Origin: Isurus oxyrinchus
Taxonomy: Eukaryota
Reading direction: 5' to 3'
Length of the DNA stretch: 64,000 bases
NCBI GenBank assembly: GCA_026770705.1
Contig: JANJGN010000026.1
Coordinates: forward strand, 35,526,001 to 35,590,000
Below the pieces are notes generated by a model. It saw nothing but the letters and a program-made list of their open reading frames with translations, made no database searches and was not told the origin of the DNA. The position numbers and the translations under genes were made by a program. The stretch's first letter is position 1. Every line of letters starts with the position of its first letter. Shown here piece by piece: positions 5,278-49,227 of this stretch.

Positions 5278-5776
5278 ATGCATTTAAAATTCACCCTTTT
5301 AACTACCCTCACCTACTTAGCATTTGATAAGTCTACATGGGAAGTTATAGTACAAACCATTAAAAACTCACTGATTCTTAGAAAATTCACAATTCAGTTG
5401 TAATCTATACTTTCAATTAGATCTGAGTCACGAAGATTCTGTGTCCCAGGATTGGTCAGCAGTCGTCCTGAAAATCGGACAGACGTTCAGAACGCAGTGC
5501 AGCTATTCGACAACAGCAACCTGGTATGACCTGTACTGGTACCGAAAGTATCCCGATGATCGCCCGGAGATGATAGTGTGGAGAAGTACCATTGGCAGTG
5601 GAGGGAGAGCGGAAAACATTGGGAATCGCTTCAGTTCTGTAATAAACAAATCGTCAAAAATGTCTGTTTTAACAGTCACTGCTCTTCAGCTGAGCGACAC
5701 GGCACTCTACCTTTGTGGATTCGCCCGATCAGATCGACACAGTGACACAACCCAATCCTTCTCTCGTACAAAAACT
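5278..5776 (+). pseudogene. TCR V segment (delta-like) with open V exon and perfect 23-RSS but non-canonical leader donor (ORF/pseudogene)
   Basis: Leader 5278-5326 MHLKFTLLTTLTYLAF ends G|ATAAGT; acceptor AG 5419-5420; exon LSHEDSVSQ...QCSYS...LYWYRK...DTALYLCGFARSDR; CACAGTG 5738-5744, 23-bp spacer, ACAAAAACT 5768-5776. Confidence 0.9.
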
Positions 5777-14507: not shown

Positions 14508-14591
14508 AATATAATTATGCTATATTCTGTTGGATTGCATTTTCCAGTATTCTATCATCTTGTATTTTGTTATTTTGTATTTTATTATTGT

Positions 14592-14924
14592 AAGTTATAT
14601 GGAATTGCGCTTTTTCTTTTACAAATTATGTACATTATATCTCATGCAACTGGCAGTAATGGAGTATGACAGTCAGCGGTTGTTGCAGAAGGAGACATTG
14701 CATCATTGATCTGTTTTACCAAAGTAGCAGGACGGATCAGACGATATCCGGACAGAACAATGCAGCACTTGGCGAGAAGTACCAGCAATCGGAACAAGAT
14801 CAAGGCTTGGCCCAATTTAGCGTAGTGAAGTGCTCAGAATGTTGGCGACGCTCGAGTGACAGACGCTATTTCTGTTTCTTTGAGGCACAATGTGTCACCT
14901 CGCAGTAAGGATCATAGAAAAGCC
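14592..14924 (+). pseudogene. Highly decayed TCR V pseudogene, apparently with fused leader
   Basis: KLYGIALFLLQIMYIISHATG-SNGV*QSAVVAEGDIASLIC...RRYPDRTMQHL...GDARVTDA; CACAATG 14886-14892, 23-bp spacer, AGAAAAGCC. Confidence 0.7.
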
Positions 14925-20785: not shown

Positions 20786-21209
20786 ATGATATCACTGCCT
20801 GCTATAACACCGCCCATATCATCATCCACTGCTGTCGTCAGTATGACCCGCCTTCTTTGCCATTTATTATTGGAGAGTTTGCTGCCTTTGTTCTCTGATG
20901 TAATTGATTGGATGTGGGCGGCCCCGTGTTAGCTCAGAGACAGTGTGAGCCAATGTCACTTTGAAGTAGTGAATGTAAGTGGCCAGGACATGAGTTCAGA
21001 GACAGTGTGAACCGGTGTTCGTGTGAATCCTGAAGCGGTAAACTCCAAGGCTCGGCTTATTTCGCTAGTCCGACAGAAAAGCGCCTTGAGTTGGACCTGA
21101 AGTGAATGTTTGGTTGCTTGTTCAATCTTCAGAATACAATATCCTTTTCCTGGCCGTAACCTGATCTCCGTGGACAATTGCTTCAGCTGGTATTTCATGT
21201 GATCTGATA

Positions 21210-21575
21210 ATGCTGTGGATTTACAGAGTCTGTTTTCTCTTATCCATTCTGATCTCCACTGAAGTGACCGGTGAAGATGAGGTGACGAAGCTCCCAGTGT
21301 GAATTGTTGTCAGTGAAGCGGGAATCGTATCCATGAACTGCACCATCATCAGTGGGATGAACGTGGTGTGTTGGTACAGGCAGCTCCCCAATCAGCCACC
21401 CCAACATCTTGTAGTGGCCACAAGAGGAACTGATCAACACGGGAGGATCTCTGCTTCAGTCGGGGGAGACAACAAACTTAGTATCCTGGCCATGAGGGAT
21501 ACGCAAGTTACAGACACTGCCTCCTATCTAAGTGCCATGAGTGTAACAAACAAACTGAGAGCTCGTACAGAAACC
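21210..21575 (+). pseudogene. TCR V pseudogene with intronless leader
   Basis: MLWIYRVCFLLSILISTEVTG-EDEVTKLPV*IVVSE..SMNCT..CWYRQLP...DTASYLSAM; Cys104->Ser; heptamer 5' part missing, 23-bp spacer, ACAGAAACC. Confidence 0.9.
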
Positions 21576-21634
21576 TACACAGAGTGGGGGCTCAGGACTA
21601 CGATGTTTCCATGATCGGCTTGTGAATTATGTGA

Positions 21635-24885: not shown

Positions 24886-25225
24886 ATGTTCCAGATTTAC
24901 TGGGTTTTCGTGATGGTTGATGCACTTCTCAAGTGAAGCTGAGGTTGTGCAGCTCCCTGGGCGGCTGGTTCTCAGTGACGTGGGAATCGTATCCATGAAC
25001 TGCTCGGCTACCATCTCGTACTGGGACAGACTCCGCCCGTAACAGCCCCTCCAGCATCTGGTTATGGCCACATGTGGTACCGATCAACAAGGAAGGATCA
25101 CTGTTGCAATCCGGTGAGTCAATAAATTTAGCACAATGACCTTGAGGGACATCCGAATGACAGACAGCGCCACTATCTCTGTGCCGTGAGGCCACAGAGT
25201 AGCAAACAGAGTCTGTACAGAAACC
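24886..25225 (+). pseudogene. TCR V pseudogene with intronless leader (paralog of 21210)
   Basis: MFQIYWVF...EAEVVQLPGRLVLSDVGIVSMNC...DIRMTDSA..LCAVR with frameshifts; CACAGAG 25193-25199, 17-bp spacer, ACAGAAACC. Confidence 0.88.
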
Positions 25226-41095: not shown

Positions 41096-41134
41096 CACAG
41101 TGACAGGAAACAGAGGGAGCCCCGTACAAAAACA
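41096..41134 (+). other. 23-RSS
   Basis: CACAGTG, 23-bp spacer, ACAAAAACA. Confidence 0.97.
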
Positions 41135-44389: not shown

Positions 44390-44739
44390 GGTTTCTGTAC
44401 ATATGCTCGTTGTACTGTGGTTTACAGCGCACAAATAAGTGGCCGTGTCTGTAACCCGGGCGCCCCTCACAGCCAGGACACTGTGCTTGTTGTCTACAAC
44501 GATTGATCGCGTTGATTGGCTCCTCTTGTTGCCATCACCAGATGCTGGGGCAGCTGATTTGGGGGTTGTCTTTACCAACGCACAATGTCAAATGCAATAG
44601 TGATGATGCAGTTCATAAACATGATTCCCGTTTCACTAACAATCACCCGCCCAGGGGGTTGCATCACCTCATCTTCACATGTCACATCCGTGCAGATCAG
44701 GGTGGAAAACAGCAAACAGGCTCTGTAAATCCGGAGCAT
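44390..44739 (-). pseudogene. TCR V pseudogene with intronless leader (paralog of 21210)
   Basis: MLRIYRACLLFSTLICTDVTC-EDEVMQPPGRVIVSETGIMFMNC...VRW*RQ...DTATYLCAVN; CACAGTA 44413-44419, 14-bp spacer, ACAGAAACC. Confidence 0.9.
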
Positions 44740-47864: not shown

Positions 47865-49151
47865 CAAAAACAGAATTACCTGGAAAAACTCAGCAGGTCT
47901 GGCAGCATCGGCGGAGAAGAAAAGAGTTGACGTTTCGAGTCCTCATGACCCTTCGACAGAACTTGATTTCGAGTCCAAGAAAGAGTTGAAATATAAGCTG
48001 GTTTAAGGTGTGTGTGTGGGGGGGGGAGGAGAGAGAGAGAGAGACAGAGGTGCTTGTGTAGACAAACAAGCAGTGATAGAAGCAGATCATCAAAAGATGT
48101 CAGTGACAATGGTGCAAAAGAACACATAGGTATTAAAGTTAAAGTTGGTGATATTATCTAAACGAATGTGCTAATTAAGAATGGATGGTAGGGCACTCAA
48201 GGTACAGCTCTAGTGAGGGTGGGGGGAGCATAAAAGATTTTAAAATATTTAAAAATAATGGAAATAGGTGGGAAAGGAAAAATCTATAAAATTTATAGGG
48301 AAAAAAAAGGGGAAAAAAGGGGGAAACAGAAAGGGGGTGGGGATGGGGGAGGGAGCTCACGACCTAAAGTTATTGAATTCAATATTCAGACCGGAAGGCT
48401 GTAAGGTGCCTAGTCGGAAGATGAGGTGCTGTTCCTCCAGTTTGCGTTGGGCTTCACTGGAACAATGCAGCAAGCCAAGGACAGACATGTGGGCAAGAGA
48501 GCAGGGTGGAGTGTTAAAATGGCAAGCGACAGGGAGGTTTGGGTCATTCTTGCGGACAGACCGCAGGTGTTCTGCAAAGCGGTCGCCCAGTTTACGTTTG
48601 GTCTCTCCAATGTAGAGGAGACCGCATTGGGAGCAACGAATGCAGTAGACTAAGTTGGGGGAAATGCAAGTGAAATGCTGCTTCACTTGAAAGGAATGTT
48701 TGGGCCCTTGGACGGTGAGGAGAGAGGAAGTGAAGGGGCAGGTGTTACATCTTTTGCGTGGGCATGGGGTGGTGCCATAGGAGGGGGTTGAGGAGTAGGG
48801 GGTGATGGAGGAGTGGACCAGGGTGTCCCGGAGGGAGCAATCCCTACGGAATGCCGATAAGGGGGGTGAAGGGAAGATGTGTTTGGTGGTGGCATCATGC
48901 TGGAGTTGGCGGAAATGGTGGAGGATGATCCTTTGAATGCGGAGGCTGGTGGGGTGATAAGTGAGGACAAGGGGGACCCTATCATGTTTCTGGGAGGGCG
49001 GAGAAGGCGTGAGGGCGGATGCGCGGGAGATGGGCCGGACACGGTTGAGGGCCCTGTCAACGACCGTGCGTGGAAAACCTCGGTTAAGGAAGAAGGAGGA
49101 CATGTCAGAGGAACCGTTTTTGAAGGTAGCATCATCGGAACAGATGCGACG
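47865..49151 (-). mobile_element. Young 5'-truncated Penelope-like element with open GIY-YIG ORF
   Basis: 248-aa ORF 48357-49103 (NLVYCIRCSQCGLLYIGETKRKLGDRFAEH...GLNIEF) followed by pseudo-LTR. Confidence 0.95.
47926..47962 (-). ncRNA. Hammerhead-like motif, variant core CUGUCGA
   Basis: GTT-CTGTCGA-A-GGGTC(ATGAG)GACTC-GAAA-CGTC-AAC; same variant at 12041-12077. Confidence 0.55.
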
Positions 49152-49227
49152 ATCTCAATGTTCACTCAGGAACGTTTTATTGAATCGATCCAAGCACCTT
49201 CCCTTTACAGCACCTGAGCTGCAGGAA

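Follow-up and report, generated by a model that had tools for sequence, protein, structure and literature searches.

A shark TCR-alpha V gene family with its predicted signal peptide in one frame with the V region

Can a T cell receptor V gene do without the intron that divides its leader? A split leader is called canonical for all antigen receptor genes in the available excerpt of PMC12227049, and is held to be near-universal among their V genes, the exceptions cited being those of birds and of marsupial TCR-mu. The window considered here, a 64-kb stretch at G000:C26:35526001-35590000 in the genome of the mako shark Isurus oxyrinchus, raises the question anew, as the original prediction read in it V genes whose signal peptide passes directly into the V exon. 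Judging by its sequence, the window is part of the shark TCR alpha/delta V array, since the genes in question carry a V-set domain (PF07686, above cut-off in the family proteins P0001 and P0002), their best TCR matches among PDB structures are TRAV12-3 alpha chains, and their closest named protein is GCC41311.1 of the bamboo shark (Chiloscyllium); the Cys, Trp and Cys that mark a V-set of TRAV type are present. About 20 V-like segments lie in the window (24 match rows, some duplicate), where, by eye, the V at 41096 resembles nurse shark aV10 and that at 5738 resembles aV4. That the other V families here have a split leader, as had been proposed, stands for four window Vs read by eye, the rest of the V-like matches lying outside that reading.

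Three copies of the fused family lie in the window, and all three are pseudogenes. The ATG at 21210 reads MLWIYRVCFLLSILISTEVTG directly into EDEVTK, and that at 44739, on the minus strand, reads MLRIYRACLLFSTLICTDVTC into EDEVMQ, both exactly as first translated. The copy at 24886 has the same layout, with its ATG present and its leader frameshifted, and the RSS remnants that had been noted were found on all three copies. The features discussed below are as follows.

14518..14924, plus strand: the copy at 14592, a pseudogene belonging to the L051-type sister family with its split leader; it has a decayed intron, acceptor and first exon lost, a V remnant and a 23-RSS at 14886
20907..20954, plus strand: CCAAT/ATTGG and GC-box-like motifs, putatively promoter-like
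21038..21041, plus strand: GTAA some 173 nt upstream of the ATG, a possible donor for an intron in the 5'UTR
21184..21201, plus strand: weak acceptor-like CAG, in frame and in phase 1, located 23 nt upstream of the ATG, with a conserved CATGTG, which we take to be E-box-like or donor-like
21210..21272, plus strand: 21-codon fused leader of pseudogene copy 1 (predicted signal peptide; V-x-G at -3/-1)
21220..21226, plus strand: TTTACAG within the leader, phase 2, of low matrix score and unconserved; not an acceptor
21273..21543, plus strand: broken TRAV-type V region, with a TGA at 21300-21302 and Ser for the second Cys
21544..21575, plus strand: RSS remnant with a 23-nt spacer, nonamer ACAGAAACC and a damaged heptamer
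24886..25225, plus strand: pseudogene copy 2 of the fused family, with ATG, frameshifted leader, V remnant and an RSS with a 17-nt spacer
44390..44739, minus strand: pseudogene copy 3 of the fused family, with an intact 21-codon leader, a broken V and an RSS with a 14-nt spacer

The defects of the copy at 21210 are a TGA at codon 31, the change of its second Cys to Ser and the damaged heptamer; the minus-strand copy has stops, one frameshift and the 14-nt RSS spacer, and the copy at 24886 has frameshifts and the 17-nt spacer. Copies identical at 100% to the 21210 pseudogene (window 21150-21580) occur megabases apart, at C26:32660056, C26:40232051 and C151:195860, with copies of the 14592 pseudogene alongside at 97-99%; this near-identity may reflect either very recent segmental duplication or duplication in the assembly.

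The copy at 14592 had itself been described as a distant copy with a 21-codon hydrophobic stretch in the place of the fused leader, a description that we withdraw: it has no ATG in the window, its best match is the split family L051/L085, and the supposed leader aligns with the leader intron of L051 (identity 66% across 235 columns, E 3e-25, the start of V being covered). The 20 closest relatives of this copy are all broken; L051 is a more distant, intact relative whose split leader of 19 codons has a GT donor and a 187-nt intron, with the acceptor at -11, and in this sister family the first exon measures 58 nt and the intron 179-187 nt. TRAV05 of C. punctatum, given with an intron at 59-240 and marked as transcribed in the portion of supplement 15 of PMC10322711 available, fits these dimensions by its coordinates.

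How general is the layout? Searches of the 5-Gb genome for the fused family listed 40 matches at the DNA level and 150 at the protein level, and the best 30 of each were taken, giving 60 loci and 36 distinct copies. Half of these, 18 of 36, are intact, with ATG, 21-codon hydrophobic leader, V and 23-RSS, and 11 of the 18 lie on contig C26; neither number is a gene count, because those on other contigs could represent alleles or duplication in the assembly. The control set comprised 41 other V loci, hand-picked, with L088, L091 and L124 set aside as apparent remnants of the fused family; L088 (G000:C11:35951100-35952600) is a decayed orphon on another large contig. The ATG stands at exactly -63 in 35 of the 36 distinct copies, and a YAG at -14, -11, -8 or -5 is found in none of them, whereas 38 of the 41 control loci have a phase-1 YAG at -11, -8 or -5 from the mature V. 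It is this combination of a fixed ATG and a missing YAG, against acceptor-bearing controls, that is strong evidence for a fused leader. An in-frame ATG followed by a hydrophobic run is weak evidence alone, because it also occurs in eight of the 41 controls, six of which are cases of intron read-through among the 38 acceptor-bearing loci. ATG, leader and V lie in one open frame, with no phase-1 acceptor, and at the level of DNA the proposal that leader and V form a single exon appears to be borne out across the family. The TTACAG within the leader, singled out at the start as the place where an upstream exon might be spliced, was examined on the DNA and rejected as an acceptor: it lies in phase 2, and is absent from 8 of the 18 intact copies; its scores on a matrix trained on this locus run from -6.3 to 1.3, where 30 of 32 true acceptors reach at least 5.4.

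By simple rules of charge, hydropathy and -3/-1 residues, the fused leader is predicted to be a signal peptide. In the 18 intact copies the net charge of residues 1-6 is +1 or +2 and the best eight-residue hydropathy is 2.0-3.6, against 2.3-4.0 for the spliced leaders of 14 loci, whilst V and G occupy -3 and -1 in 16 of the 18. Translation would start at the ATG of the fused leader, and the signal peptide would be cleaved after the V-x-G motif. The leader contains no indels among 11 intact copies, several being present in their upstream DNA, and one in-frame stop lies within the 21 codons above the ATG in all 12 distinct upstream sequences. On the other hand, the leader is under little coding constraint (pN/pS 0.67; V, 0.56), and its variable columns fall 9/10/11 by codon position, with no third-position bias. 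In RNA runs X1-X4 at L030, and X1-X3 plus X5 at L011, coverage fell on repeats and not on leader or V, a result that weighs neither for nor against.

All 18 intact copies end in an RSS of the form CACAGTG-23-ACAGAAACC, and none has a joined J; the family is thus no retrocopy of rearranged mRNA (TRMVj type), which agrees, at the level of DNA, with what the original prediction had argued from the remnants. The nonamer variant, preceded by CGT, is common to all 18, for example L010 and L021. We would expect the fused V to join J-alpha by ordinary V(D)J recombination.

Indeed, the family is not confined to the mako. GCC41311.1 and a JGI protein, compared as protein sequences, align without gaps over leader and V; the same leader is thus present in the bamboo shark protein model, which shares 49-58% identity with the fused family and falls in the same clade. 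In the nurse shark alpha cDNA table (PMC5931798 supplement 3, in the part displayed), 19 rows are labelled aV9 and their leaders are trimmed to the mature V; by eye, four of the 12 rows displayed (391-394) read like the fused family, and because of this the family appears to be rearranged and expressed in that relative. The label aV9.1, in rows 385-396 of the same partial display, spans two clearly different Vs, and only rows 391-394 belong here. The nurse shark aV9.1 clones (by eye) and GCC41311.1 represent the same V family as the mako fused genes; as far as these sources were available they give no exon structure, the cDNA rows being without leader and the bamboo shark entry a protein model. 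The bamboo shark TRA table of PMC10322711, in its available part, offers coordinates only, with "0" meaning that an intron is not defined, and its rows are therefore not tied to the fused family. A search for full-length relatives yielded none among 49 candidates, and two metagenome scans for the family returned no locus.

How, then, did the leader come to be fused? The reading that we favour, and hold to be somewhat better than an even bet, is that this TCR-alpha V family, with a 21-codon leader (predicted signal peptide) in one frame with V and no canonical acceptor, lost its intron once, in place, in a shark ancestor, and did so independently of birds. A single origin of the layout would have been followed by segmental duplications that multiplied the family, many copies decaying thereafter. 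As to the route, we tentatively posit germ-line recombination of the gene with a reverse-transcribed, spliced but unrearranged V transcript, to which we give a little less than an even chance; such a route would keep both promoter and RSS. The end of the fused leader resembles a normal second leader part, and the remainder, 17 codons and one base, is of a length usual for first exons at this locus (11-19 codons); because of these two features, in-place loss through cDNA is favoured. Precise intron loss mediated by cDNA, as the original prediction proposed, would be a plausible route, though some upstream features fit another. The accompanying claim that reverse transcriptases are abundant here was not confirmed: no RVT Pfam match was found in 54 of the window's 70 long frames, a scan that decayed elements may escape and that left aside 16 frames overlapping a V or containing N. 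A 265-aa frame at window 48357-49154 on the minus strand matches GIY-YIG weakly, its E of 1.8e-4 falling just short of the cut-off, and may be a retroelement remnant.

Perhaps the intron was never cleanly removed. In this alternative, which we regard as unlikely though deserving of attention, the old acceptor died, intron became exon, and a new ATG and signal peptide arose within it, leaving the old first exon and intron in the 5'UTR. The region upstream of the fused genes contains much that would suit it. A donor-like GTAA stands at about -173 in all 18 intact copies, with donor scores of 4.0-8.6 (true donors, 3.8-11.1), and an in-frame, phase-1 CAG at -23 in 16 of the 18. The nearest CCAAT lies at -245 to -302 in 11 of 11 fused copies, whereas 13 of 21 split loci have it at -72 to -157 (six of the 21 lack one, five of these from the sister family), and the distance from the promoter-like boxes to the ATG exceeds that of most split families by 100-150 nt. 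In 25 of the 36 fused copies CTG or CGG occupies the place of the old acceptor, and the T-rich V introns of the locus readily yield hydrophobic in-frame runs. Taken as candidates, these upstream features fit a remaining 5'UTR intron.

The homology that an intron-born leader would predict is, at best, suggestive. In pairwise alignments of the fused upstream region, L051 came top of 24 under two scoring schemes (z 3.2 and 3.7) and second under a third, with the donor in register in 5 and 9 of 11; these hint at a common origin with the first exon, donor and intron of the sister gene. Against this, nhmmer found no homology between the fused upstream region and the first exon and intron of the sister family, a composition-corrected profile comparison of the two gave z 0.7, and MAFFT disagreed with the pairwise alignments on where in the intron the leader falls. 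Moreover, the CAG at -23 scores just -8.1 to 4.6 as an acceptor, a normal first exon may end in ACT G too (window V 41096), and the idea arose post hoc, from the same data. In its fuller form, in which the signal peptide was born de novo from the leader intron, the old first exon and an intron of about 150 nt survive in the 5'UTR, and the arrangement was kept across shark lineages and arose possibly twice (the L118 clade), we judge it improbable.

Could the leader nonetheless be an ordinary split one, its first exon lying upstream and the hydrophobic stretch being no more than an intron tail, as in the copy at 14592? The six read-through mimics among the acceptor-bearing controls and the weak coding constraint on the leader speak for it, as does an AG at -8, which occurs as AAG in 17 of the 36 copies and as GAG in one, although only three of these 18 are intact (AAG in each). 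We consider it very unlikely, as 15 of the 18 intact copies have no AG at all at -14, -11, -8 or -5, and no conserved first exon was found within 950 nt upstream of the intact copies, where candidates for a shared leader exon appeared in only two of 18, at unrelated places. ATG, leader length and frame are, besides, kept in GCC41311.1 and the JGI protein at 49-65% identity.

A further possibility, raised from the outset, is that the single-exon layout is an ancient gnathostome state, common by descent to bird TRAV1. The main tree, of 62 rows, was built on an alignment of about 95 columns, which limits its resolving power. In it the fused copies, GCC41311.1 and the JGI protein form one clade (support 100/99), set within a chondrichthyan clade (99/92) that includes the split L051 family, two Callorhinchus Vs and the L118 clade, whilst bird TRAV1 is placed elsewhere. 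A quick tree of 345 rows agrees, though its support is weaker (88), and sets the birds beside Vs of lizards and mammals; this grouping of bird TRAV1 has an SH-aLRT of 99. An exclusive clade of fused and bird sequences was not rejected in a first AU test (p=0.175), but was rejected once amniote neighbours were added (p-AU 0.0087; 15 rows were dropped from the 62-row set, namely two long branches, 11 near-copies and two birds, and 14 were added). Joining the fused family to the whole amniote clade (p=0.30) was not rejected, nor was joining it to L118/P0062 (p=0.31), a second shark clade (L118, L120 and catshark P0062) that may itself be fused. The nearest shark relatives are split, shared descent would require the intron to be regained, and the mammalian members of the bird TRAV1 clade presumably have a split leader. 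An ancient lineage shared with birds is thus disfavoured, though not in all tests, and we consider it remote; most simply, the trees point to a fused state derived within sharks and convergent with that of birds.

The L118-related clade yields about 33 matches outside the main array, on C26 near 5.9 Mb and on C38, C42, C49, C100, C131, C146 and C326. Its loci include L118 (G000:C131:351760-353260), L120 (C38), L143 (C26:5951000-5960900) and L125-L139, with catshark P0062 as homolog, and V remnants neighbour it in L141 and L143. In L118 and L120 an in-frame ATG is accompanied by a hydrophobic run of 20 residues, and no acceptor stands at -11, -8 or -5, although there is a phase-1 AG at -23, and the RSS spacer measures 22 nt; theirs may be a second fused family. 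At G000:C131:527026-538687 and C38:4635726-4643910 a single V pseudogene is repeated in tandem about every 2-3 kb, its leader replaced by a repeat element.

Lastly, the notion that these are the leaderless supporting V-delta of NAR-TCR cassettes, which are spliced from an upstream J onto a phase-1 acceptor directly before V, can hardly be credited: no phase-1 YAG lies beside V in any of the 36 copies (0/36 at -14, -11, -8 or -5), and the fused family, judged by eye, appears as the first V in nurse shark alpha-chain cDNAs.

What would the fused layout mean? A V lineage that persists across shark orders can then do without the leader intron, and annotation pipelines that demand a splice acceptor would miss such genes or label them pseudogenes. 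Were the intron-born route true, an antigen receptor gene would offer a clean case of a new signal peptide drawn from intron sequence. Nothing here implies that the receptor works differently. In the literature searched, including the available parts of PMC12529555, PMC12698447, PMC5278385, PMC8656973, PMC5931798 and PMC10322711, we found no report of a single-exon shark TRAV; as most subscription journals, in which the main papers on shark TCR loci appeared, lay outside that search, an earlier description may exist.

To conclude, the fused shark family is a real and conserved architectural exception, of a kind already known from birds. Compared with the canonical split TRAV of this locus, L051 included, it has the same V-set domain, the same 23-RSS and an equivalent of the 11-nt leader end before V; the split genes differ in their phase-1 intron, of 81-193 nt in 13 of 14 modelled loci and 683 nt in one. 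In opossum TRMVj, for which retrotransposition or intron deletion has been proposed (excerpt of PMC2275272), the leader intron is likewise missing; there, the V is joined to D and J in the germ line, whereas the shark family is unrearranged and has kept its RSS. The closest parallel lies in chicken TRAV1 (V-alpha1) and TRGV1, where, according to the part of PMC10972964 available, leader and V form a single exon: these too are unrearranged TCR Vs with an RSS, and expanded, multi-member families among families with split leaders. Yet the leader sequences of chicken and shark are unlike, and birds group with lizard and mammal Vs whereas the shark family groups with split-leader chondrichthyan Vs, so that the two single-exon layouts are likely convergent, and this conserved, expanded shark family would add a further and probably independent exception to the split leader.
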